Origin: an uncultured Chloroflexia bacterium
GTDB lineage: Bacteria; Chloroflexota; Ktedonobacteria; Ktedonobacterales; JADMIN01
DNA: 32,000 nucleotides
Assembly (NCBI GenBank): GCA_963718915.1
Contig: CAVRAI010000015.1
Coordinates: forward strand, 90,001-122,000
Direction: 5' to 3'
The notes below the pieces were generated by a model. The model had not been told where the DNA came from, made no database searches, and was given only the letters and a program-made list of their open reading frames with translations. This document shows positions 5,442 to 30,373 of the stretch, piece by piece. Made by a program: the position numbers and the translations under genes. Each line of letters opens with the position of its first letter. Position 1 is the stretch's first letter.

Positions 5442-5449
5442 GGTGGGCT

Positions 5450-5595
5450 GGCGGCTGAAGCCGCGCCTAAGCGCCTCCGGCGGCAAAGCCTGCCTGCGCA
5501 GGCTCGTAATAGAAACGAACCTGCTTTCTGGAGGCCGCGCAGGCGGCCTTTGCGGCGGAGCGGGAGCGTAGCCCTTAGCCGCGCGTTAACGCGCC
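5450..5595. repeat. Inverted pair of ~60-bp family-2 repeat units (5450-5504 reverse, 5530-5595 forward) between pdxS and pdxT
   Basis: The reverse complement of 5450-5504 (AGCCTGCGCAGGCAGGCTTTGCCGCCGGAGGCGCTTAGGCGCGGCTTCAGCC) and 5530-5595 both match units at 24.5, 28.3 and 30.1-30.3 kb. Confidence 0.7.
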
Positions 5596-20100: not shown

Positions 20101-20153
20101 TGGAGGCCATCAGCCGCCTCTATGAGTTGCAGCGCCGCGCGCGAGAGGGATGA
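17115..20153 (+). CDS. mutS: DNA mismatch repair protein MutS (1012 aa, carrying two repeat-derived in-frame insertions and a low-complexity N-terminus)
   Basis: [26 protein letters not shown] (mismatch-binding domain), Walker A [29 protein letters not shown] and [8 protein letters not shown]. GTG 17115 is preceded by GGGGAG. Confidence 0.95.
   Translation: [1012 protein letters not shown]
17768..17978 (+). repeat. Three family-1 palindromic units lying in frame inside mutS
   Basis: GACCTCACCCCTGACCTCACCCCTCAGCCCCTTCTCCCAGGAGGAGAAGGGC, then TTCCCCTCTCCCCATGGGGGAGGGGCCAGGGGAGGGGG, then GGTTCCCTTCTCCCGATGGGGGAGGGGTTAGGGGAGGGGGCC. Same architecture as the intergenic copies at 552, 685 and 9468. 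Confidence 0.75.
18579..18706 (+). repeat. Second, more degenerate family-1-like segment in frame inside mutS
   Basis: GGCCAGGGAGAGG...GCCCCTCTCCCTGTGGGG...GAGGGGTTGGGGAGGGGTT encodes ...[43 protein letters not shown]..., which has no counterpart in canonical MutS. Confidence 0.55.
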
Positions 20154-20217
20154 TGGCGCTTCTGATGGTCGCGCTCACGACCGGGCGGCTGCAGCGCCGC
20201 GCGCGAGAGGGATGATG
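20128..20217 (+). repeat. Perfect 28-bp direct repeat duplicating the mutS stop region
   Basis: TGCAGCGCCGCGCGCGAGAGGGATGATG occurs at 20128-20155 (contains the mutS TGA at 20151-20153) and again at 20190-20217, with 34 bp between the copies. Confidence 0.9.
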
Positions 20218-20270
20218 ACGGGCGGCCCCCTCCCCCACAGGGAGAGGGGAACCAGAACCAGGTTCGTGGG

Positions 20271-20801: not shown

Positions 20802-20869
20802 AGAGCTACCCATGCGGCAACCTCACAATGCGACGCATGGCTATTTTGAACACGAGGGAGCGACGCGGG

Positions 20870-23668
20870 ATGAAGCCGGAGGACCGGGCGCGCGAGACAA
20901 TTGACGAGATGCTGCGGCAATGCGGCTGGATTGTGCAGGACCGCGACCAGCTGAACCTGGGCGCCGGGCTGGGCGTCGCCGTCCGCGAGTTCGGTCTATC
21001 CACGGGCGCCGCCGACTATCTGCTCTTCGTTGATCGTCAGGTAGTTGGTACGGTCGAAGCGAAGAAGGTGGGCCAGACACTCACTGGCGTGGAGGAGCAG
21101 AGCGCCAAGTATCGCGTCGGCCTGCCGCCCGGGTTGCCTGCCGCGCGCGACCCGCTGCCGTTCGCCTATGAGACCACTGGCATCGAGACGCGCTTCACCT
21201 CGCACCTCGACCCCGACCCGCGTAGCCGACCCGTCTTCGCCTTCCACCGGCCCGAGACGCTGGCCAACTGGCTGCGCCTCGCGCCCGCCGACGTCCCGCC
21301 TGCCGAAAACGCCACCCTGCGCGCCCGGCTCCTGCATCTGCCACCGCTGGCGACGACAGGACTGCGCGACTGCCAGTTCGAGGCGATCACCAATCTGGAG
21401 CGCTCATTCGCCGAGAACCGCCCGCGCGCGCTGGTGCAGATGGCCACCGGAACTGGCAAGACCTACACCGCCGTCAGCAGCATCTATCGCCTGGTGAAGT
21501 ATGGTGGCGCAAAGCGAGTGCTCTTCCTCGTGGACCGCGCCAACCTGGGCAGGCAGACGCTCACCGAGTTCGAGCGGTTTGTCACGCCGGATGATGGGCG
21601 CAAGTTCACCGAACTCTATAACGTCCAGCGGCTGCAATCGAATAGTATCGACGCCGCCGCGCGCGTCTGCGTCACCACTATCCAGCGCCTCTATTCGATG
21701 CTCAGCGGCGAGCCGGAGTTGGCCGAAGATGTGGAGGAGCTGTCGCTCTTCGATCTGGACGACGCGCTCAGAAATCAGCCGCCGAAAGAGGTGCGCTACA
21801 ATCCGGCCATCCCCATCGAGACGTTCGACGTGATCATCACCGATGAGTGCCACCGCAGCATCTATAACCTCTGGCGCGGCGTCCTCGAATACTTCGACGC
21901 CTTCATCGTCGGGCTGACCGCGACGCCGAACAAACAGACCTTCGGCTTCTTCAACCGCAATCTGGTGATGGAGTACGGCCACGACCGCGCCGTCGCCGAT
22001 GGCGTCAACGTAGACTATCAGGTCTATCGCATCCGCACGGAGGTCACTGAGCGTGGCGGCGTCGTGGAGGGGAGGGAATGGGTAGACCGCCGCGACCGCC
22101 AGACCCGCGCCCGCCGCTGGGAGCAGATTGACGACGACCTGCCCTTCGCGCCGAACCAGCTTGACCGCGATATCGTCGTCCCCGATCAGATTCGCACGGT
22201 CATCCGCGCCTTCCGCGACGCCCTTGGGACGGACCTTTTCCCTGGCCGGACGGAGGTTCCCAAGACCCTCATCTTCGCCAAGGATGATAGCCACGCCGAC
22301 GACATCGTGCAGATCGTGCGCGAGGAGTTTGGCCGGGGCAACGAGTTCGCGCAGAAGATCACGTATAAGACGACTGGCCGCAAGCCCGAAGACCTGATCG
22401 CCGACTTCCGCAACAGCTATAATCCGCGCATCGCCGTGACGGTGGATATGATCTCGACCGGCACTGATATCAAGCCGCTGGAGGTGCTGCTTTTCCTGCG
22501 CTCGGTCAAGAGCCAGGGCTTCTTCGAGCAGATGAAGGGGCGCGCCGTCCGCACCATCGCCGACGATGATTTTCAGGTGGTGACGCCCGACGCGCGCAGC
22601 AAGACACACTTTGTGCTGGTGGATGCCGTTGGGGTCTGCGAGCGCCACAAGAGTGACGATCCGCCGCTGGAGCGCAAACGCAGCGTTCCCTTCGCCAAAC
22701 TGCTGGATGCGGTGGCGCTGGGCATGCGCGACGACGATACGCTCTCGTCGCTGGCGGGGCGGCTCGGACGGCTGGCTCCGCGCCTGACCCCCGATGAGGC
22801 GGCGACCATCGCCACGGCGGCGGATGGCCAATCGCTGCGCGATCTGGCGCAGGGGCTGCTCACTGCGCTCGATGCCGATACGCGACTGGCGGAGGCGCAG
22901 GCAACGACCGGGCAGGCCGAGCCGGATGACGCGGCGCTCAAAGCTGCCGCCAAAACGCTGGCGGCGACCGCCTGCGCGCCGTTCGATAATCCCACCCTGC
23001 GCAATGCCCTCACCCGCGCCCAGCAGCGCGACGAACAGACCATCGCCCTCTCCGTGCAAGACGCCGTCCTCAGCGCGGACTGGGATGCGCAGGCGGAGGA
23101 TCGCGCGCGCAACGCAATCGGCAGCTTCCGCCGCTTCATCGAGGAGCACCACGAGGAGATTACGGCGCTGCAACTCTTATACAGCCGTCCGCGCCATGCC
23201 GGGGTGCGTTTCAGCGACCTGAAGCAGCTTGCCGAGGCGATCTCCGCGCCGCCGCTCAGCTTGACCACCGACCTGCTCTGGCAGGCGTACGAACACCTGG
23301 ATGCCCAGCGTGTCCGTGGGGCGCGGGCGCAACACATCCTGACCGACCTGATCGCGCTGGTGCGCTATACCCTCACCCGCGAGCAGGACGCCTCCGCCGT
23401 GCTGGAGCCGTGGGCCGAGACGGTGCGCGAACGCTTTGCCGCATGGCTGGCGGAGCAGGAGTCGCGGCGCGGCAGGTCATTCACGCCGGAGCAGCGCCAG
23501 TGGCTGGAGATGATCCGCGATCACGTCGCGTCCTCCCTCTCCATCGAGGCGGACGACTTCGACTACGACCCCTTTAGCCAGCGCGGCGGCCTGGGCCGGG
23601 CGGCGCAAATCTTCGGCGACGAGCTACCCGCGCTGCTGAAGGAGTTGAATGAGAGGCTGGCGGCGTGA
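20870..23668 (+). CDS. hsdR: Type I restriction enzyme R subunit (HsdR) with EcoEI-type C-terminal domain
   Basis: N-terminal PD-(D/E)xK nuclease region (AADYLLFVDRQVVGTVEAKK). Helicase motif I MATGTGKT and motif II ITDECHRS. C-terminus FTPEQRQWLEMIRDHVASSLSIEADDFDYDPF resembles the EcoEI R C-terminal domain. GAGGGAG lies 9 nt upstream of ATG 20870; ATG 20828 is a less likely start. Confidence 0.92.
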   Translation: MKPEDRARETIDEMLRQCGWIVQDRDQLNLGAGLGVAVREFGLSTGAADYLLFVDRQVVGTVEAKKVGQTLTGVEEQSAKYRVGLPPGLPAARDPLPFAYETTGIETRFTSHLDPDPRSRPVFAFHRPETLANWLRLAPADVPPAENATLRARLLHLPPLATTGLRDCQFEAITNLERSFAENRPRALVQMATGTGKTYTAVSSIYRLVKYGGAKRVLFLVDRANLGRQTLTEFERFVTPDDGRKFTELYNVQRLQSNSIDAAARVCVTTIQRLYSMLSGEPELAEDVEELSLFDLDDALRNQPPKEVRYNPAIPIETFDVIITDECHRSIYNLWRGVLEYFDAFIVGLTATPNKQTFGFFNRNLVMEYGHDRAVADGVNVDYQVYRIRTEVTERGGVVEGREWVDRRDRQTRARRWEQIDDDLPFAPNQLDRDIVVPDQIRTVIRAFRDALGTDLFPGRTEVPKTLIFAKDDSHADDIVQIVREEFGRGNEFAQKITYKTTGRKPEDLIADFRNSYNPRIAVTVDMISTGTDIKPLEVLLFLRSVKSQGFFEQMKGRAVRTIADDDFQVVTPDARSKTHFVLVDAVGVCERHKSDDPPLERKRSVPFAKLLDAVALGMRDDDTLSSLAGRLGRLAPRLTPDEAATIATAADGQSLRDLAQGLLTALDADTRLAEAQATTGQAEPDDAALKAAAKTLAATACAPFDNPTLRNALTRAQQRDEQTIALSVQDAVLSADWDAQAEDRARNAIGSFRRFIEEHHEEITALQLLYSRPRHAGVRFSDLKQLAEAISAPPLSLTTDLLWQAYEHLDAQRVRGARAQHILTDLIALVRYTLTREQDASAVLEPWAETVRERFAAWLAEQESRRGRSFTPEQRQWLEMIRDHVASSLSIEADDFDYDPFSQRGGLGRAAQIFGDELPALLKELNERLAA

Positions 23669-24342
23669 ACGATGACACACCAAAGCCCTATCTCTACATC
23701 TTCCTGGATGAAGGAGGGAATTTCGACTTTTCGCCCAAAGGAACCCAATATTTCACGATTACATCTCTCACCGCAACTCGTCCATTTGCCTGGGATGCCG
23801 CGTTGATGTCACTCAAATACGACGAATTGGAGCGAGGGTCGGGCGCCGAGTATTTTCATGCAAGCGAGGACAAGCAAATTGTGCGAAACAGGGTGTTTGC
23901 TACTATCGCGACGCATATGGACGCTATACGCCTGGATAGTATTATCGTTCCCAAGCGAAAGATAGTGCCTGAATTACGCCCGCCCGAGAAGTTCTATCCG
24001 CGTATGCTTGGATACCTGCTGCGTTATGTCATTCAGCGCGAGCCGCTTGATGCGTCTACCGAGGTATTGGCTATGACAGATGTTGTGCCAATGAAGGCCA
24101 GGCAAAAAGCTATAGCCAAGGGTGTGGAGGAAGCTCTGACCGCACTGCTTCCTGCTGGCGTGCGTTATCGGGTGTTGCATCACGATTCAAAGTCGTGTAT
24201 CAGTCTTCAGGTTGCTGACTACTGCAACTGGGCCATTTACCGAAAGTGGGATCGGGGTGATGAACGAAGCTATAACGTCATTCGCAGTGCCATTCGCAGC
24301 GAATTCGAGATTTTCAAGAGAAGCAACAGGCTGCATTACTGA
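23665..24342 (+). CDS. DUF3800-family protein
   Basis: N-terminal YLYIFLDEGGNFDF, then FHASEDK, then C-terminal SLQVADYCNWAIY, matching my recollection of DUF3800 hallmarks. The GTG start overlaps the hsdR TGA (GTGA, 23665-23668). Visibly lower G+C than hsdR. Confidence 0.75.
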   Translation: MNDDTPKPYLYIFLDEGGNFDFSPKGTQYFTITSLTATRPFAWDAALMSLKYDELERGSGAEYFHASEDKQIVRNRVFATIATHMDAIRLDSIIVPKRKIVPELRPPEKFYPRMLGYLLRYVIQREPLDASTEVLAMTDVVPMKARQKAIAKGVEEALTALLPAGVRYRVLHHDSKSCISLQVADYCNWAIYRKWDRGDERSYNVIRSAIRSEFEIFKRSNRLHY

Positions 24343-24443
24343 CGAATTATCTCTGGAAAATATGACCACCCCGACTACCCTTGCGGGAGAGCCCCCGGGG
24401 CTCTTGTCATCGGAGTGGAACCTTTGCAGCACCCTCATTGTAT

Positions 24444-24490
24444 CACAAGTGACACAAGTGACACAAGTCAATGAGAGGCTGGCCGCGTGA
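24444..24490 (+). repeat. 9-bp tandem repeat x3 (24444-24470) abutting a 21-bp copy of the hsdR 3' terminus (24470-24490)
   Basis: CACAAGTGA CACAAGTGA CACAAGTCA, then AATGAGAGGCTGGCCGCGTGA, which matches AATGAGAGGCTGGCGGCGTGA at 23648-23668 (20/21, including the stop codon). Confidence 0.85.
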
Positions 24491-24545
24491 TGCTTGATGT
24501 GTTGCGGTTGTTGTCGTCAAGGTTGGTGTTATTGGCGGATTCGCA

Positions 24546-24760
24546 GCGGCGCGGGCGGTTGAAACCGCACCTGAAGGGCCTCGCTCCGCTCCGCCACAAA
24601 ACCCGCCGTCGCGGGTTGCAGAACGTACGCCAACGGGGCATCCGGTGGGCCGCAATTCTGTGAAACCTGCGTAGGCAGGTTTCGTGGCCGGAGGCCCTAC
24701 AGGCGCGGTTTTAACCGCCCGCGTATGAATCGCCCGCGTATGAATCGCCCGCGTATGAAC
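24546..24760. repeat. Inverted pair of family-2 units (24546-24625 reverse, 24656-24723 forward) followed by a 15-bp tandem repeat x3 (24716-24760)
   Basis: The reverse complement of 24546-24625 matches 30094-30156. 24656-24723 matches 30291-30355. CGCCCGCGTATGAAT occurs 3 times (last copy ...GAAC), ending 34 nt before the hsdS start. Confidence 0.8.
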
Positions 24761-24793
24761 CACACGCTATGATGAACTGGATACGAGGGATAC

Positions 24794-26405
24794 ATGACCG
24801 ACGAACAACACCTGCCCGATGGCTGGGCATGCACGACGCTATTGGATGCTTGTATTGTGGAGCGAGGTATCACATTTCCAGCGTCGGCAAAGATGTCTAC
24901 TCCTGCTAATGGCGCGATTGCATGCCTGCGGACGGCTAATGTTCAGAACACCGTTGACTGGGATGACCTCATCTATGTGCCTAGAAGCTTCATGAAATCA
25001 CTATCTAAGTTGTTGCAAGAGGAAGACATACTTATCTCAATGGCAAACAGCAGAGAGCTTGTTGGCAAGGTTTCTTTTGTGAGCAGTGTACTTGTTGAAA
25101 GTACTCTCGGCGGATTCATTGCTGCATTGCGAAGCACAGCGCTGGTTGACAGCAGGTACCTGTTCTTTTACTTGCGCGCAAGTGCCACTCAGGAAGGTCT
25201 ACGTTCTAGAGCTAGCCAAACCGTGAATATCGCAAACATATCTTTGACGACAATTTACGAGACTCCGCTTTACGTTGCCCCCCTCGCCGAACAGCGCCGC
25301 ATCGTCGCCGCCATCGAGCAGCAGTTCACCCGGCTCGATGCTGGCGTCGCCGCGCTCAAACGCGCCCAGATCGCCCTCAAGCGCTACCGTGCCGCCGTCC
25401 TCAAAGCCGCCGTCGAGGGCAGCCTCACTGCCGACTGGCGCGCCGCGCATCCCGCCGCCGAGCCAGCCGCCACGCTGCTCGCGCGCATCCTCGCCGAGCG
25501 CCGCGCCCGCTGGGAGGCCGACCTCCGCGCCAAAGGCAAAGACCCCGCCAAAGCCACCTACGCCGAACCGAGAGCGCCCGACACCGCCAGCCTGCCATCG
25601 CTGCCGGACGGCTGGTGCATGGGCGACGGTGGAGCAGCTAACAACTCTTATTACGAGTGGCTCACGAGGGTGGGCTGAATACTACAGTGATGATGGCGTG
25701 TTGTTTATCAGAGCGCAAGACATTAAGACTGACGAATTACAATTAGAAGCCGTTGCCAAGGTGGCGCTACCAAGTCATATAGAAGGTGCCCGTACCCTAG
25801 TAAAGCAATACGATCTTCTCGTTACTATCACTGGGGCAAATGTTACCAAGACGGCATTGGTACAGAGCGAACTGCCAGAATCGTACGTAAGCCAGCATGT
25901 AGGGTTGGTTCGACCTGCGGAGCCTGACTGCGCTTCTTACATGTATTACTGGATTATTGCCCCAACCCACGGGCGTCGCGAGCTTGAAAAAAGTGCCTAT
26001 GGGGCTGGAAAGCCTGGTCTGAACCTCGATAATCTCCGAGAGATTGTTATGGCTTTCCCCCCACTGGCCGAGCAGGAGCAGATCGTCGCCGAGGTCGAGC
26101 GGCGGCTCTCCGTCGTCGGCGAGCTAGAGGCCACCATCGCCGCCAACCTCAAACGCGCCGAGCGGCTGCGCCAGAGCATCCTGCGCGAAGCCTTCGCCGG
26201 GCGCCTCGTCCCCCAGGATCCCACCGACGAGCCAGCCAGCCTCCTCCTGGCGCGCATCCAGGCCGAGCGCGCCGAGCAATCAGCCAACGGCAACGGGCGG
26301 AACGGCCATCGTCGGCGCAACGGGTCAGCTGCGGAGGCGTCAGAGACGATGGAGAGCATACCAACAGGCGCGCAACAGCAGCCATTGTGGCGCGAGGGAG
26401 AATGA
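24794..26405 (+). pseudogene. hsdS: Type I R-M specificity subunit HsdS, split by a +1 frameshift at about 25616-25620 into two half-subunit ORFs
   Basis: First half (24794-25678): LPDGW..TRD1..PLAEQRRIVAAIEQQFTRLDAGVAALKRAQIALKRYRAAVLKAA (central conserved coiled coil), ending LPSLPDGWC, then out-of-frame residues and a stop. Next frame from 25620: WATVEQLTTLITSGSRGW..TRD2..PPLAEQEQIVAEVERRLSVVGELEATIAANLKRAERLRQSILREAFAGRLV (distal conserved region), stop at 26405. Both TRDs are AT-richer than the conserved regions. Confidence 0.85.
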
Positions 26406-26461
26406 AGAGGACAGAAGTAGACAGACTTGGCAGGCAATTACCGAATATGTGAAAATGGCCC

Positions 26462-26490
26462 TGGACGACGTATAACATATACGTTATAAT
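26462..26490 (+). promoter_or_regulatory. Candidate promoter with a palindromic operator for the three-gene cassette
   Basis: TGGACG (26462-26467), a 17-bp spacer, then TATAAT (26485-26490). The inverted repeat TATAAC-N6-GTTATA (26471-26488) overlaps the -10 box. The start codon at 26501 would be only a few nt from the predicted transcription start. Confidence 0.4.
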
Positions 26491-26500
26491 GGAGGCACGG

Positions 26501-26926
26501 ATGGCGAAGTCAGGCAAAGGGAAGAAAACGACTTCGTCATCTAGCGGCCAGGGGCGAAGCGGCACGACGTTCTATACAACGAAGCAGTTCGACAAGGCGG
26601 TAGAAGGGTTGGGCAAAGTTCATGTCGCCAAAATCAACGCCCAGGCACAGAAGTTCGAGCAGGAATGGCAGAAAAGCAAGTCAAATGATGATTTATCCCC
26701 AGGTTTCAATTTCAAACAGCTTCATGCGCTGGCAGGCCAATACCGGGTATGCCAGATTTACGTGGGAACAGATTTCCGGCTCGCTGTGACATTTCTCATT
26801 AGTCAAGACAGAGCATACTGGGTGCATGCGTGGAAGAAAACAGCATTGAACAATCACACCGAGACAGAGCTAGCGAAAAAACGAGCGAAGTCGTTGTGGA
26901 CCGCTTTGCAAGAGGAGGGCAAGTGA
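26501..26926 (+). CDS. RelE/ParE-superfamily (HigB/Gp49-like) toxin candidate
   Basis: The C-terminal core FNFKQLHALAGQYRVCQIYVGTDFRLAVTFLISQDRAYWVHAWKKT resembles the K.L..g...yR.r.g.dyR..y.....i.ll..f.KK pattern of this superfamily. GGAGG lies 5 nt upstream of ATG 26501 (alternative ATG 26489). It is followed by an overlapping HTH gene. Confidence 0.65.
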   Translation: MAKSGKGKKTTSSSSGQGRSGTTFYTTKQFDKAVEGLGKVHVAKINAQAQKFEQEWQKSKSNDDLSPGFNFKQLHALAGQYRVCQIYVGTDFRLAVTFLISQDRAYWVHAWKKTALNNHTETELAKKRAKSLWTALQEEGK

Positions 26927-27510
26927 TGGACGAAATGTTTGAACCAACAGGAACCATCGAAGACGCCATCCGTGATCTGCTCAACAATGACGACGAGGCA
27001 GCGCGAGAATATCTCAAAGAGAGTTTTCTCACAGAGGCAATGCTTGCCCTGTTCCACGCCCGTCGCGATGCTGAACTAACACAGGCGCAACTGGCCGAGC
27101 GACTCGGTACCAAACAGTCCTCAATCGCCCGCCTTGAGCGCGACCTTTCAGGCTCGGTAACGCTTCGACGTTATGTTGAAGTGGCGCTTGCCTGCGGAGT
27201 CATGCCCCTTGATGTTGCCCTCGTACCTGTCGCACAAATCAAACAATACGCTACACACAACCCTGGCGCCGAAAAGACTCCTGCTGCCTTCAATGCCTGG
27301 CTTGCGTCACAAGTCCCTGTATCACTGTCGACAGTGATTTCCCTGCAACCCGTTATGTCCGCCAATGCAAGTATGATCGAGACTTCGACGCCGCCTGCTG
27401 TGATAGCTAGGGAGAATGCATCTACGGCACTGAGCGCGGGCGTTGAAATGCAGCAGTCCCTCTGGTCTGCTAACTCGTTTGGAGTTCAAACAAAAGGGTT
27501 CGCCGCATGA
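26926..27510 (+). CDS. XRE-family HTH antitoxin candidate with a ~110-aa low-complexity C-terminal tail
   Basis: HTH LTQAQLAERLGTKQSSIARLERD. ATG 26926 overlaps the toxin TGA by 1 nt and is preceded by AGGAGGG (26912-26918). The tail after about residue 85 is rich in Ala/Ser/Val/Pro. Confidence 0.8.
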   Translation: MDEMFEPTGTIEDAIRDLLNNDDEAAREYLKESFLTEAMLALFHARRDAELTQAQLAERLGTKQSSIARLERDLSGSVTLRRYVEVALACGVMPLDVALVPVAQIKQYATHNPGAEKTPAAFNAWLASQVPVSLSTVISLQPVMSANASMIETSTPPAVIARENASTALSAGVEMQQSLWSANSFGVQTKGFAA

Positions 27511-28244
27511 GCACAGCCATCAATGTAAAGGTGCTGACGGCCCGGGTAGGGTACGAATTCGCACTCGATGATCTTCGACTCACCATGCTGACCACCAATC
27601 CGGTCATACAGCATATCGCAGAAGCTTTCCAATTTAAGGGCGCTGCGATCACGACTCCTCCTGCCACATTTGGCCCCGTCCAGAACACTTTACCGGCGGG
27701 CGTGGTAATGCAGGGAGGAATAATGGTGTTGCCAGAAGATGGACAAATCGTGCCAATTCGATTCCTGCACATTGAGCCGCAGCGCATTATTATTGATGTG
27801 GGTGGGCCGTCATCTGTACTGGACGGCGCCTATGATCGTCTGCGTGAAGCTGTATCCTCAATCACCGCTCCTGATGGCTCACCTATCATTGGAGACCCGA
27901 CTCGTATCCTCTACTTTTCTGAACTGAGCTTCATAGCTCCAGGATTACTAGATGGCGTCTTTGCGCCAGGAGTTCGCGCACTGATGACGCGATATTTGCT
28001 AGTCGATAAACAAGAGAACGGCATGACCCTATCGCCATCACTCCAAGTCCAAGCTTTGTCCAGCAGTGCGACGTATACAGGCGATGTTACCCTCGGTGAT
28101 GGCCACACACTTTCTCTCTCTCCGCGAGCTGGTACTACCCGCGATCAGGGTGTTATTTATAGCAGTGCTCCGCTAGAGACCAAGCAGCATATTGGATTTA
28201 TCAACGAACTGGTATCGCTGCTTTCTCCTGCTAAAAGCCGCTAA
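27507..28244 (+). CDS. Hypothetical protein (245 aa), third gene of the cassette, no recognised domain
   Basis: The start overlaps the antitoxin stop (ATGA, 27507-27510). Same lower-G+C composition as genes 1-2. No TM segment, no Cys, and no Walker, nuclease or protease motif seen. Confidence 0.6.
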   Translation: MSTAINVKVLTARVGYEFALDDLRLTMLTTNPVIQHIAEAFQFKGAAITTPPATFGPVQNTLPAGVVMQGGIMVLPEDGQIVPIRFLHIEPQRIIIDVGGPSSVLDGAYDRLREAVSSITAPDGSPIIGDPTRILYFSELSFIAPGLLDGVFAPGVRALMTRYLLVDKQENGMTLSPSLQVQALSSSATYTGDVTLGDGHTLSLSPRAGTTRDQGVIYSSAPLETKQHIGFINELVSLLSPAKSR

Positions 28245-28280
28245 AGTGTCTACACCCACTGAGACCATGCAATTTCTGGC

Positions 28281-28425
28281 TAGCCCGCGCAGGCGGGCTT
28301 TGCGGTCGCGCAAGCGCGACCCATAGGCGCGGCTTCAGCCGCCATCCGCTCATTCGTCTAAGACCCTTTCACCCGTCGAGGAGAATGCTCATTGCAGGAT
28401 TAGCCGTAGGTCTTCAGCCTACGGC
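28281..28425 (+). repeat. Family-2 unit (28281-28343) and family-3 hairpin (28398-28425) upstream of hsdM
   Basis: TAGCCCGCGCAGGCGGGCTTTGCGGTCGCGCAAGCGCGACCCATAGGCGCGGCTTCAGCCGCC, and GATTAGCCGTAGGTCTTCAGCCTACGGC with a perfect 8-bp stem. Confidence 0.7.
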
Positions 28426-28507
28426 ACGGGAACCCCAGAACAATCATTGCTATCGCTGCGCCCGTACCCGCTAAAAGTACAGCACCAACCATAAGGAGCC
28501 GCCATCC

Positions 28508-30004
28508 ATGACCACCAACGCCGCCCAGACCATCGTCCAGCGCCTCTGGAACTACTGCAACCTCCTGCGCGACGACGGCATGTCCTATGGCGACTACGTC
28601 GAGCAGCTCACCTACCTGCTCTTCCTCAAAATGGCCCACGAGCGCACCCAGCCGCCCTATAGCCAGCCCTCGCGCATCCCCGCTGGCTACGACTGGCCCG
28701 CCCTCCTCGCCCGCGACGGCGACGAGCTAGAAACCCACTACCGCCATATCCTCGAAACGCTTGGCCGCGAGCCGGGTATGCTCGGCATGATCTTCCGCAA
28801 AGCCCAGAACAAAATACAGGACCCCGCCAAGCTGCGCCGCCTCATCGTGGACCTGATCGAGCCGCAGCAGTGGACCACCCTCGATACCGACGTCAAAGGC
28901 GACGCCTACGAAGGGCTGCTCCAGAAGAACGCCGAAGACACCAAGAGCGGCGCTGGCCAATACTTCACCCCGCGCCCGCTCATCCAGGCCATCGTCGAGG
29001 TCATGCGCCCCGCGCCGGGCATGCGCATCTGCGACCCCGCCTGCGGCACCGGCGGCTTCCTGCTTGCCGCCCACGACGCTATCGTCCACCACTATCCCGC
29101 CATGGATCGCGATCAGAAGCGCTTCCTCAAGCACGACGCCCTGCGCGGCTGGGAAATCGTCGATAACACCGCCCGCCTCTGCGTCATGAATCTCTTCCTG
29201 CACGGCATCGGCGACGAAAAGGGAGAAGACAGCCCCATCACCGTCGCCGACAGCCTGCGCGGCGACCCCGGCGACCGCTTCGAGATGGTGCTCACCAATC
29301 CGCCGTTTGGCCGCAAGAGCAGCGTCCTCTACGTCAACGGCGAAGGCAAAGAGGAGCGCGAATCCACCGTCGTCGTCCGCGACGACTTCTGGACCAGCAC
29401 CAGCAACAAACAGCTCAACTTCCTCCAGCACGTCCGCACGCTGCTCGCCATCAACGGGCGCGCGGCCGTCGTCGTGCCTGATAACGTGCTCTTCGAGGGC
29501 GGCGCGGGCGAGGCCATCCGCCGCAAGCTGCTCCACGAATGCGACGTCCATACGCTCCTGCGCCTGCCCACCGGCATCTTCTACGCCCAGGGCGTCAAGG
29601 CCAACGTCCTCTTCTTCGACAAGCGCCCCGGCAGCCCGACCCCCTGGACGCGCCAGCTTTGGATCTACGACCTGCGCACCAACCAGAACTTCACCCTCCG
29701 CACCAATCCGCTGACCCGCGCCCACCTCGACGATTTCGTCGCCTGCTACGCCGCCGAGAATCGCCATGCCAGGCAGGAAAGCGAGCGTTTCCGCGTCTTC
29801 AACTACGACGACCTGCTCAAGCGCGACAAAGTCAGCCTCGATCTCTTCTGGCTGCGCGACGAAAGCCTGGAGGGCGCCGATACCTTGCCCGCGCCCGACG
29901 TGCTCGCCGCCAGCATCGCCGAGGATCTGCGCGCCGCCTTCGAGCAGTTCGCCGCCATCGCCGAAGATCTTGGCGTGTCAGACCTCACGCCCGACGAGGA
30001 TTGA
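28508..30004 (+). CDS. hsdM: Type I R-M DNA methyltransferase subunit HsdM (N6-adenine)
   Basis: N-terminal HsdM domain (LWNYCNLLRDDGMSYGDYVEQLTYLLFLKM), GQYFTPRPL, SAM motif DPACGTGGFL and catalytic NPPFG. AAGGAG lies 9 nt upstream of ATG 28508. Confidence 0.95.
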   Translation: MTTNAAQTIVQRLWNYCNLLRDDGMSYGDYVEQLTYLLFLKMAHERTQPPYSQPSRIPAGYDWPALLARDGDELETHYRHILETLGREPGMLGMIFRKAQNKIQDPAKLRRLIVDLIEPQQWTTLDTDVKGDAYEGLLQKNAEDTKSGAGQYFTPRPLIQAIVEVMRPAPGMRICDPACGTGGFLLAAHDAIVHHYPAMDRDQKRFLKHDALRGWEIVDNTARLCVMNLFLHGIGDEKGEDSPITVADSLRGDPGDRFEMVLTNPPFGRKSSVLYVNGEGKEERESTVVVRDDFWTSTSNKQLNFLQHVRTLLAINGRAAVVVPDNVLFEGGAGEAIRRKLLHECDVHTLLRLPTGIFYAQGVKANVLFFDKRPGSPTPWTRQLWIYDLRTNQNFTLRTNPLTRAHLDDFVACYAAENRHARQESERFRVFNYDDLLKRDKVSLDLFWLRDESLEGADTLPAPDVLAASIAEDLRAAFEQFAAIAEDLGVSDLTPDED

Positions 30005-30016
30005 CATCCGCCCCCC

Positions 30017-30355
30017 GATTAGCCGCGGCCTTTAGGCTGCGGCCCGCTCGCTTCACCTGAAACCTCGCCCTCCGCCACCACCGTTCGCCCGTCTCTGTGC
30101 AACCCGCGCAGGCAGGTTTTGTGGCGGAGCGCAACGAGGCCCTTCAGGCGCGGTTTATGAACTTTCACTTTTTACCCCGAACACCGCGCGTCGTGGTGAG
30201 GCGAGGCTGGCCGTAGCATTCATGCTACGGCGAATGGGCTGCGGACTCCCCAGACCGTCTCCCAACAGGATATCCCGTGGCGAGCGTATCGGTGCAACCT
30301 GCGGAGGCAGGTTTCGTGGCCGCAGGCCCCAGAGGCGCGGTTTCAACCGCCCGCG
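30017..30355 (+). repeat. Dense block of family-2 and family-3 repeats between hsdM and the peptidase gene
   Basis: GATTAGCCGCGGCCTTTAGGCTGCGGC (30017-30043). Family-2 units at 30094-30156 and 30291-30355. An ~84-bp unit at 30161-30244 is about 85% identical by hand alignment to 16726-16806. Confidence 0.75.
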
Positions 30356-30373
30356 CAAGGTGGTGAGGTTCTC

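Follow-up and report, generated by a model that had tools for sequence, protein, structure and literature searches.

A DUF3800 gene and a structured antisense small RNA as a putative acquired module at the hsdR/hsdS junction of a type I restriction operon

This study deals with a 32-kb stretch of DNA from an uncultured Chloroflexia bacterium of the order Ktedonobacterales (contig CAVRAI010000015.1, positions 90,001 to 122,000), referred to here as the window, which carries, in this order, mutS, hsdR, a gene of the DUF3800 family, a spacer of 303 nucleotides (nt), hsdS, three small open reading frames (ORFs) in a second block of low G+C content (GC), hsdM and a convergent M3 peptidase gene (Table 1). 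On balance, we consider it probable that the ~0.8-kb low-GC segment with the DUF3800 gene is a horizontally acquired two-part module, composed of a ribonuclease (RNase) H2-like DUF3800 protein with intact conserved acidic residues and a small RNA (sRNA) of ~79 nt, which was inserted by recombination at the hsdR/hsdS junction and acts as an autonomous, RNA-governed defence or addiction device. The module would have no translation-initiation region of its own and would have lodged a few codons into hsdS, at the overlap of the hsdR stop and the hsdS start. The DUF3800 protein would then be translated from the former hsdS ribosome-binding site and its GTG, coupled to hsdR, with a second copy of the junction left for hsdS, and the sRNA would be transcribed from its own promoter on the opposite strand and end just after the DUF3800 stop codon.

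The original prediction for this locus had placed the DUF3800 gene at the hsdR stop codon, in a segment of lower GC bracketed by a duplication of 21 base pairs (bp), and all three points were borne out. The two copies of the duplication differ by one mismatch, and with up to three mismatches allowed they are the only two matches in the window, as opposed to 0.01 expected from shuffled sequences, which speaks, within the window, against the possibility that the 21-mer is common background of this genome. Across positions 23600-24500, GC falls from ~0.68-0.70 to ~0.50-0.53. A DUF3800 gene is found in none of the 77 loci encoding HsdR relatives, and the closest HsdR orthologues read hsdR-GTGA-hsdS, with hsdS starting at the hsdR stop, so that the segment represents an insertion relative to the orthologous operons. 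The HsdR C-terminus ...ELNERLAA, followed by the stop, is native, being common to these closest orthologues, which come from Ktedonobacterales and Chloroflexia metagenome-assembled genomes at 66-75% identity. An empty site at the DNA level was not found in a close relative of the source genome, the nearest HsdR loci being only ~70-75% identical at the protein level.

The nature of the 21-mer becomes apparent from 18 orthologues without the cassette, in which it is 15-20/21 identical. In the orthologues the hsdS start (GTG or ATG) overlaps the hsdR TGA, and hsdS reads on as V/M-S-[E/D]-E-x-x-L-P-x-G-W. Since the 21-mer is conserved there and is followed by hsdS, it represents the conserved translational-coupling junction between the hsdR stop and the hsdS start, complete with Shine-Dalgarno sequence and overlapping start codon. 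The overlap of the DUF3800 GTG with the hsdR TGA (GTGA), which had been taken as a sign of translational coupling, is real, and an overlap with hsdR recurs in an unrelated clade (L093, L114 and L119) among the 80 further loci of this DUF3800 subfamily that were collected from metagenomes (50-58% amino acid (aa) identity, one at 77%). The DUF3800 protein begins with MNDD in the window and with MSDE or MSEE in the three closest relatives (GTGAGCGA followed by [AT]GA...), which correspond to the first codons of hsdS, and the nucleotide homology to L086 and L159 begins only at 23691-23692, near DUF3800 residue 10. The combination of an hsdS-like N-terminus with a DUF3800 core that starts at residue 10 indicates that the cassette was placed a few codons into hsdS and uses its initiation region; DUF3800 has thus taken over the ribosome-binding site, the start codon and the first codons of hsdS. 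On the right side, the homology to L086 breaks off at 24468, just one or two bases short of the second 21-mer, which puts the right edge of the cassette at ~24468. The right copy had been interpreted as the hsdR end displaced by the insertion; the duplication as such stands, but this copy is better read as a spare hsdR/hsdS junction for hsdS, whose present start MTDEQHLPDGW resembles the VSDEQRLPDGW of L004. The single mismatch cannot decide which of the two copies is the original and which the duplicate.

The DUF3800 protein has a sole Pfam match, PF12686 (DUF3800), with 35.2 bits against a cut-off of 21, its residues 11-194 covering profile positions 1-149 of 149, which places it in the family. 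The subfamily has more than 1,250 detectable members from many phyla and is tightly conserved. Eight residues (D15, E16, H65, D91, D139, H173, Q182 and D185) are invariant among 40 homologues and all present in the window protein; D15 and E16 sit in an LDEGG motif and, together with D91, D139 and D185, are candidate carboxylates of an active site predicted from sequence. Modelling with AlphaFold2 gave a mean predicted local distance difference test (pLDDT) of 91 and a predicted template modelling (TM) score (pTM) of 0.88. The top Foldseek matches in the PDB were an archaeal RNase HII (1eke) and the human RNase H2A (3puf_M), both with probability 1.0 although with TM-scores of only 0.39-0.49, followed by Argonaute PIWI domains and complexes of short prokaryotic Argonautes, with TM-scores of 0.3-0.5 overall; a sequence search of solved structures with the protein gave no match. 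Structure prediction thus points to an RNase H2-like fold closest to RNase HII, in agreement with the fold predicted earlier for DUF3800 (PMC7736814; PMC10910872). The statement of the original prediction that DUF3800 has no established function holds insofar as no activity of a DUF3800 protein is reported in the literature found, and Csx32 of the Cas13 CASK operon was named without characterisation (bioRxiv 10.64898/2026.08.25.746378). It does not hold insofar as an RNase H2-like prediction, a role as effector of retron type VII, an association with Cas12a2/a3 and Cas13, and eleven RNA motifs have been published.

The DUF3800 gene had also been considered the only gene of the segment, which has to be revised, as an sRNA gene is predicted on the opposite strand, convergent with it. 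An element of ~70 nt lies directly 3' of the DUF3800 stop in almost all collected loci, a regular expression matching it in 77 of 81; in L131, L134 and L145 the element was found by a covariance model, and the contig of L096 stops 26 nt past the DUF3800 stop. The sRNA follows DUF3800 in every locus of the subfamily with enough sequence, 0-20 nt after the stop codon and always convergent. In an alignment of 69 distinct minus-strand copies, referred to as A4, the element forms a three-helix structure in which P1, with 9 bp, closes two hairpins of 7 and 3 bp. Standard pairs make up 99.5% of the paired cells, as opposed to only 40-58% when the partners are slid by 1-3 columns; changes on both sides occur at 14 of the 19 pairs, and none of 500 shuffles reached any of the observed measures. 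Read on the minus strand, the non-Watson-Crick cells comprise 25 G·U and 2 A·C, and a GNRA loop caps the small hairpin in 58 of the 69 sequences. This asymmetry and the GNRA loops on the minus strand indicate that the element is an RNA, antisense to DUF3800. The unpaired bases AAAGGU, UGAYAAG and UAG are invariant, and loops and junctions are nearly invariant across phyla, without a variable guide-like segment.

A covariance model (R1) recovered the window copy at 24350-24429 on the minus strand with 89.8 bits (E 8e-23), had no match in the 77 HsdR loci without DUF3800 (~1.3 Mb in total), and located the element right after the DUF3800 stop in the chromosome of an Actomonas aquatica isolate, in the conjugative plasmid pP14_b of Phaeobacter piscinae and in three viral contigs. 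The minimum free energy fold of the window sRNA alone equals the consensus structure (-33.6 kcal/mol, z = -2.3). Searches of Rfam, with the whole window at gathering thresholds and with a 1.5-kb region and a 111-nt slice at E<=10, returned no known RNA family for the window sRNA. The copy in L133 has a sub-threshold match on the same strand to RF02968 (DUF3800-IX), with 30.8 bits against a gathering score of 36.8 (E 0.009), a match absent in the other 19 of the 20 relatives tested; the sRNA behaves as a divergent relative of DUF3800 motif IX. The conservation of its structure with covariation argues for recognition by a protein and not for pure antisense pairing, and we propose that the sRNA binds and governs the nuclease, either as an inhibitor in the manner of an antitoxin or as an obligatory cofactor. 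In L086 the DUF3800 gene (1583-2275, 81% nt identity to the window) is broken by small indels, and its sRNA is intact and nearly identical to the window over 24361-24421.

A sigma-70 promoter with a TG-extended -10 box is predicted for the sRNA from its match to the consensus. Comparably placed antisense promoters are found in 30 of 67 non-redundant loci, as opposed to 3.3 expected and 3 on the sense strand, and a GTCAA box, matching the -35 motif TTGAC, lies 30-100 nt beyond the element in 49 of 73 loci against a background of 7%. The 9-bp tandem repeat originally described as three copies at the right junction is present (CACAAGTGA), but it comprises 2.8 copies and belongs to the promoter region of the sRNA. 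Tandems of 9 nt between the -35 and -10 boxes occur in all four members of the cassette clade of the window (the window, L078, L159 and L086), and a change in copy number would alter the promoter spacing, so that the repeat could be a phase-variable switch. The repeated sequences at the equivalent place differ, with ATCACACGC x2 at 1753-1770 in L078, ATCACACGA in three or more copies at 1250-1278 in L159, and another tandem at ~2355-2390 in L086.

The original prediction had further called for a survey of DUF3800 genes for enrichment beside restriction-modification (R-M) or defence genes, and the subfamily is enriched there, with R-M or defence functions among the immediate upstream neighbours in ~15 of 38 non-redundant loci (~40%) and among the downstream neighbours in ~10 of 39, although no matched background stands behind the enrichment and the counts are lower bounds, as most metagenome contigs are short. 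By Pfam, the upstream neighbours include HsdS (4), N6_Mtase (3), EcoEI-type HsdR (2) and one each of Type ISP, McrBC, GmrSD, Abi_C, Cap15, DUF559 and patatin; downstream, HSDR_N (3), HsdS (3), Mrr, two more methylases, Cas4 and RhuM are found. Type I genes adjoin the cassette in at least 15 loci, with only the Hsd proteins of the window used as probes. In at least a dozen loci, the stop of the preceding gene and the DUF3800 start overlap; this gene is hsdR in L093, L114 and L119, hsdS in L100 and L151, and a different ORF in L112 and L113. In Actomonas aquatica the pair is found by itself amid housekeeping genes, and in Phaeobacter it lies in the plasmid maintenance and partition region. Protein and RNA form an obligatory and mobile pair, which is enriched in R-M and defence loci and recurs beside such genes in many phyla.

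This genomic company leaves room for a second explanation, a guard resembling PrrC, in which DUF3800 is made in a fixed ratio with HsdR, lies latent on the type I complex until inhibition of the enzyme by a phage anti-restriction protein releases it, the sRNA serving as sensor or cofactor. We regard such a dependence on the R-M system as possible but unlikely. The repeated translational coupling to R-M genes keeps the model alive, as the GTGA overlap with hsdR occurs in two unrelated clades and the overlap with the hsdS stop in two further loci; L119, like L120, shares the order hsdR-DUF3800-hsdS-hsdM with the window despite an HsdR identity of only 27%, type I genes are the most prominent among the neighbours, and prrC, embedded in EcoprrI, provides a precedent (PMC1484252; PMC2610378). 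However, the partners vary from locus to locus and comprise hsdR, hsdS, other methylases, McrBC, GmrSD, Abi and Cap15, no HsdR relative among the 77 carries DUF3800, Pfam finds no PrrC-like domain in the DUF3800 protein, and hsdS of the window is frameshifted. Given this change of neighbours between loci and the solitary occurrence of the pair, both amid housekeeping genes and on a plasmid, autonomy is preferred over dependence, and we infer that the pair acts as an autonomous defence or addiction module that accumulates in R-M and defence loci independently of HsdR.

The route of insertion can be approached through the closest relatives. The soil contig L078 encodes the closest DUF3800 relative (90% aa identity) in another context without hsdR and aligns to positions 23639-24447 of the window at 83% nt identity; ~90 nt past the stop are nearly identical and thus better conserved than the coding sequence. 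Cassettes of 81-83% nt identity occur in the three different contexts of L078, L086 and L159, and all keep a junction-like leader. In L086 and L159, hsdS and not hsdR lies upstream (ending ...AFRGEL and ...AFAGEM, respectively), followed ~30 nt on by a leader with 15/21 and 14/21 identity to the 21-mer and then by MSEE. L078, with no R-M gene nearby, has a decayed copy of the leader (KEL-stop-KRLTA-stop), and a 13-nt repeat of it lies to the right of the cassette. In the second, distant clade (L093, L114 and L119), an EcoEI-type HsdR ending in ...ETKERIFxA is overlapped by the DUF3800 GTG, and L118 has a relic of this HsdR terminus without hsdR. The junction-derived leader moves with the cassette to loci without hsdR, which means that the duplication is not a simple one-off target duplication.

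Flanking duplications around the unit of gene and sRNA span 13-111 nt with 82-100% identity and were found in six or seven contexts. L101 mirrors the window, as two other genes there share an ATGA stop/start overlap that the cassette occupies, with DUF3800 using the start of the left copy and the downstream gene that of the right copy. In L079, what the cassette duplicated seems to be a promoter with its leader rather than a ribosome-binding site. The idea that flanking repeats are common to all cassettes was rejected, since ~90% of the loci have none above the non-cognate null. An insertion sequence, transposon or miniature inverted-repeat transposable element (MITE) was likewise rejected, as the cassette ends show no inverted repeats and the duplication is not of fixed length and is absent from most loci, and so was an integrative element with attachment (att) sites, as the window has no transfer RNA genes, the neighbouring ORFs have no integrase domain and the repeat sequences differ between loci. 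Duplications of variable length, with diverged copies and no inverted repeats, are hard to reconcile with a transposase and fit better with a recombination that duplicates host DNA. Campbell-type recombination and homology-facilitated illegitimate recombination can both duplicate a stretch of host DNA. The most likely route would be an insertion of this kind that duplicated the flanking host expression signals, either by a Campbell-type single crossover of a circle carrying the junction or by homology-facilitated illegitimate recombination.

A self-mobilising element, in which the RNase H-fold protein uses the sRNA to insert the cassette at stop/start overlaps and thereby makes the junction duplications, is improbable in our view. 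The RNase H fold is that of DDE transposases and RuvC-like recombinases, with the bridge RNA of IS110 and the omega RNA of IscB/TnpB as analogues; near-identical cassettes in different contexts, insertions that hit coupled junctions precisely in the window and, independently, in L101, the foreign GC of the segment, and an RNA that is always there, close to the right edge of the cassette, would all fit. Against this, the sRNA has no guide-like variable part, the duplications vary in length and are absent from most loci, terminal inverted repeats are lacking, the left boundary is not fixed and the leader is host-derived, the nearest folds are RNase H2 and PIWI and not transposases, and carriage on mobile DNA is rare (three full-length viral loci and one fragment, and three plasmid records). 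A variant in which DUF3800 and the invariant sRNA form a recombination machine that targets the stop/start overlaps of coupled genes and copies host expression signals is quite improbable. If true, it would explain the junction duplications of variable length in six or seven contexts and would amount to a new RNA-assisted mobile element parasitising translational coupling.

It is also conceivable, but very improbable, that the conserved structure serves only as a bidirectional terminator or an mRNA-stabilising 3' element of DUF3800, with no separate sRNA and no partnership of RNA and protein. Its position directly behind the stop codon, its GC-rich sequence followed by a run of U on one strand, and a promoter scan that amounts to a consensus match would agree with this. 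However, a three-helix junction with invariant unpaired bases and GNRA loops far exceeds the needs of a terminator, the G·U/A·C asymmetry points to the antisense strand, antisense promoters are ~9-fold over expectation, eleven complex RNA motifs are known with DUF3800 genes (PMC5737381), and the sub-threshold DUF3800-IX match lies on the same strand. A reading in which the 21-bp repeat arose by chance or from misassembly and DUF3800 simply belongs to the operon is effectively refuted: the window is probably a metagenome-type assembly, and the 1-nt frameshift in hsdS could be an assembly or sequencing error, but beyond the low chance expectation the repeat coincides with the break in GC and with the end of the L086 homology, L078 has an analogous repeat at the same relative positions, and the orthologues are without the gene.

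Several points weigh against the acquired, autonomous module favoured here. The frameshift in hsdS may mean that the host R-M system is dead, which obscures the present role of the cassette; nine in ten loci are without a flanking duplication above the null, the recombination mechanism itself is putative, and the divergence between repeat copies could reflect age and not an origin from two parents. The sRNA structure was drawn by eye from the same sequences that were later used for the test, though the covariation is strong. Defence neighbours can be recognised in fewer than half of the loci, and the module, judged by the features that define these systems, is neither a type I nor a type III toxin-antitoxin system. 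Finally, the ends of the sRNA, its interaction with the protein, nuclease activity, and a phage or toxicity phenotype are all inferred.

The host operon combines an HsdR with the EcoEI_R_C domain, HsdS and HsdM and is thus an EcoEI/EcoAI-like type I system; the NCBIfam equivalog cut-offs were not reached by the Hsd proteins of the window. The two hsdS ORFs (24794-25678 and 25275-26405) are split by one extra A near 25618, in GGCTGGTGC-A-TGGGCGACGGTGGAGCAG (25600-25640; frames compared with orthologues), where orthologues read ...LPxGWCWATVEQ...; the extra base may be an assembly error, or else a genuine +1 frameshift that leaves the specificity subunit dead or half-sized. GC alternates along hsdS between target-recognition domains of low GC (~0.46-0.49 at 24800-25250 and 25700-26000) and conserved regions of ~0.70, which suggests that the specificity domains were swapped in from elsewhere. 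The gap between hsdS and hsdM measures 60-400 nt in the closest orthologues and holds 1-5.6 kb of unrelated DNA in others, which makes it an insertion hotspot in the R-M family of the window. Between hsdM and the last of the small ORFs, one GC-rich hairpin (28281-28304, minus strand) reaches the Rfam gathering score for CRISPR-DR28 with 38.6 bits; as a lone hairpin without an array, it was not accepted as such and is most likely a terminator or repeat hairpin.

The 303-nt spacer is probably a later addition that parted the right junction copy from hsdS. A clean insertion with a TGA target duplication (GTGA|...|ATGA) is suggestive, but only the central unit of ~175 nt is repeated elsewhere, and exact boundaries are not claimed. 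Partial copies of this palindromic unit lie at 30094-30356 and 5447-5576, both intergenic in the window, and it looks like a resident repeat of the genome comparable to repetitive extragenic palindromes (REP) or MITEs. In addition, the end of mutS (last ~24 nt and stop, ...CTGCAGCGCCGCGCGCGAGAGGGATGA; 20128-20158) is repeated 62 nt downstream at 20190-20220 with 97% identity, and an ATG overlapping the mutS stop opens a mini-ORF of 21 codons (MMALLMVALTTGRLQRRAREG, then stop) that ends in the same repeated sequence. Besides hsdR, the window thus contains another gene whose end is duplicated, here with an ATGA overlap.

Table 1. Features of the DUF3800 locus and flanking duplications in related loci. 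Positions refer to the window unless a locus is named.
Feature	Position	Strand	Description
hsdR	20828-23668	+	EcoEI/EcoAI-like type I restriction subunit; C-terminus ...KELNERLAA, then stop; Pfam EcoEI_R_C 2.5e-37, ResIII 4e-37, HSDR_N; PADLOC REase_I
Left 21-mer	23648-23668	+	AATGAGAGGCTGGCGGCGTGA; last six hsdR codons and TGA, GAGAGG Shine-Dalgarno, GTG start (23665) now used by DUF3800
DUF3800 gene	23665-24342	+	225 aa; GTG start overlapping hsdR TGA as GTGA; first ~4 codons (MNDD) hsdS-like; conserved core from L10 (23692)
sRNA gene	~24352-24430	-	~79 nt, convergent with DUF3800; ends predicted
sRNA parts	24410-24418 / 24366-24374 (P1); 24419-24425	-	P1; two internal hairpins, the second with a GCAA (GNRA) loop; conserved 5' AAAGGUU (24419-24425); U-rich 3' tail
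Predicted sigma-70 promoter	24437-24464	-	-35 GTGTCA (24464-24459), 16-nt spacer, TG-extended -10 TACAAT (24442-24437); 5' end placed near 24430; consensus match only
9-nt tandem repeat	24444-24468		CACAAGTGA, 2.8 copies; between -35 and -10 boxes of the sRNA promoter
Right 21-mer	24470-24490	+	AATGAGAGGCTGGCCGCGTGA; one mismatch to left copy; presumed former hsdS translation-initiation region
Spacer	24491-24793		303 nt, not in orthologues; between right 21-mer and present hsdS ATG
Palindromic unit	24549-24723		~175 nt, inside the spacer; 33-nt arms 24550-24582 / 24691-24723, 91% complementary
15-nt tandem repeat	24716-24759		CGCCCGCGTATGAAT x2.9, 100% matches; directly upstream of present hsdS start codon
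hsdS	24794-26405	+	Begins MTDEQHLPDGW; two frames; Pfam Methylase_S on both ORFs; PADLOC profile PDLC03109 positions 7-297 and 296-543
Second low-GC block	26406-28507		Between hsdS and hsdM; ORFs 26489-26926 (no family), 26830-27510 (HTH_3), 27507-28244 (no family)
hsdM	28508-30004	+	Methyltransferase subunit, same operon; Pfam N6_Mtase 1.2e-65, HsdM_N; 75-84% identical to HsdM of orthologues
Flanking duplication, L101			86 nt, 91% identity
Flanking duplication, L079	120-230 and 1089-1199 (L079)		111 nt, 82% identity; contains near-consensus promoter TTGACA-17-TATAAT
Flanking duplications, others			L155 51 nt; L125 45 nt; L081-83 51 nt; window 21 nt; L078 13 nt

Since 2017, DUF3800 genes and the eleven RNA motifs that accompany them have been regarded as enigmatic, and the domain recurs as an accessory of retrons, Cas12 and Cas13. 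The window locus and its ~90 relatives define a minimal, self-contained version of this association, with one RNase H2-like protein of 225 aa and one sRNA of ~79 nt in a fixed geometry. They also suggest a route by which promoterless genes can enter operons, namely by taking over the initiation region of the downstream gene at a stop/start overlap, with the duplicated junction keeping that gene translatable. If the pair is an RNA-governed nuclease, it would represent a mobile accessory of restriction operons and a toxin-antitoxin or defence architecture outside both type I and type III.

Eleven unrelated structured RNA motifs accompany DUF3800 genes (Weinberg et al., 2017; PMC5737381), and the window sRNA resembles these motifs, RF02968 included, in being a structured RNA that adjoins a DUF3800 gene. 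It shares the architecture of RF02968, in which a long G/C-rich stem closes the structure, the junction contains GA, two hairpins lie inside, UAG precedes the closing strand and the tail is rich in U. However, it falls below Rfam detection and its P3 is shorter (3 bp and a GNRA loop), and here the convergent orientation, the spacing from the stop codon and the promoter are constant, which sets it apart from DUF3800-IX. Retron type VII likewise combines an RNase H2-like DUF3800 protein with an N-terminal DE motif, a structured non-coding RNA and a defence context (Mestre et al., 2020; PMC7736814), and a weak PADLOC match to DUF3800_VII (1.5e-4) was obtained. While the retron-linked proteins lack the Q of QxxD (PMC7736814), the window subfamily keeps this motif (Q182, D185), and its RNA has no msr/msd features. 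No reverse transcriptase was found by Pfam among the ORFs scanned (6540-31990), which rules out a retron, and no retron RNA by Rfam in the window.

Among toxin-antitoxin systems, the type III (ToxIN-like) and type I systems are similar in being compact, mobile pairs of a protein and a small RNA that occur on plasmids and in defence islands. In contrast to type III, the module has a single sRNA unit in downstream, convergent position and not tandem units upstream on the same strand, the only nearby tandem being the promoter 9-mer. The RNA gene lies antisense to the 3' end of the DUF3800 mRNA, an arrangement shared with some type I systems, but the protein is a soluble-type enzyme fold of 225 aa and not a small (<60 aa), hydrophobic membrane peptide. 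Accessory genes within type I R-M operons are also known, as with the rlo genes in Campylobacter. The embedding of prrC in type I R-M operons (PMC1484252; PMC2610378) offers a comparable arrangement of an extra nuclease-type gene between co-expressed hsd genes, which suggests a second line of defence. Unlike PrrC and RloC, the DUF3800 protein, which is unrelated to them, has no ABC-ATPase or anticodon-nuclease domain in Pfam searches, and unlike prrC it has an obligatory sRNA partner and is not confined to type I loci, occurring alone as well. The CRISPR-associated proteins of the same domain family, namely DUF3800 with a tetratricopeptide repeat (TPR) domain alongside Cas12a2/a3 (PMC10910872; PMC13594972) and Csx32 in the Cas13 CASK operon (bioRxiv 10.64898/2026.08.25.746378), are likewise accessory to an immunity that targets nucleic acids, whereas here neither a TPR domain nor a nearby CRISPR-Cas system is present. 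Belonging to neither type I or III toxin-antitoxin systems nor retron type VII nor, below the Rfam threshold, DUF3800-IX, the module is a DUF3800 gene with its associated RNA.

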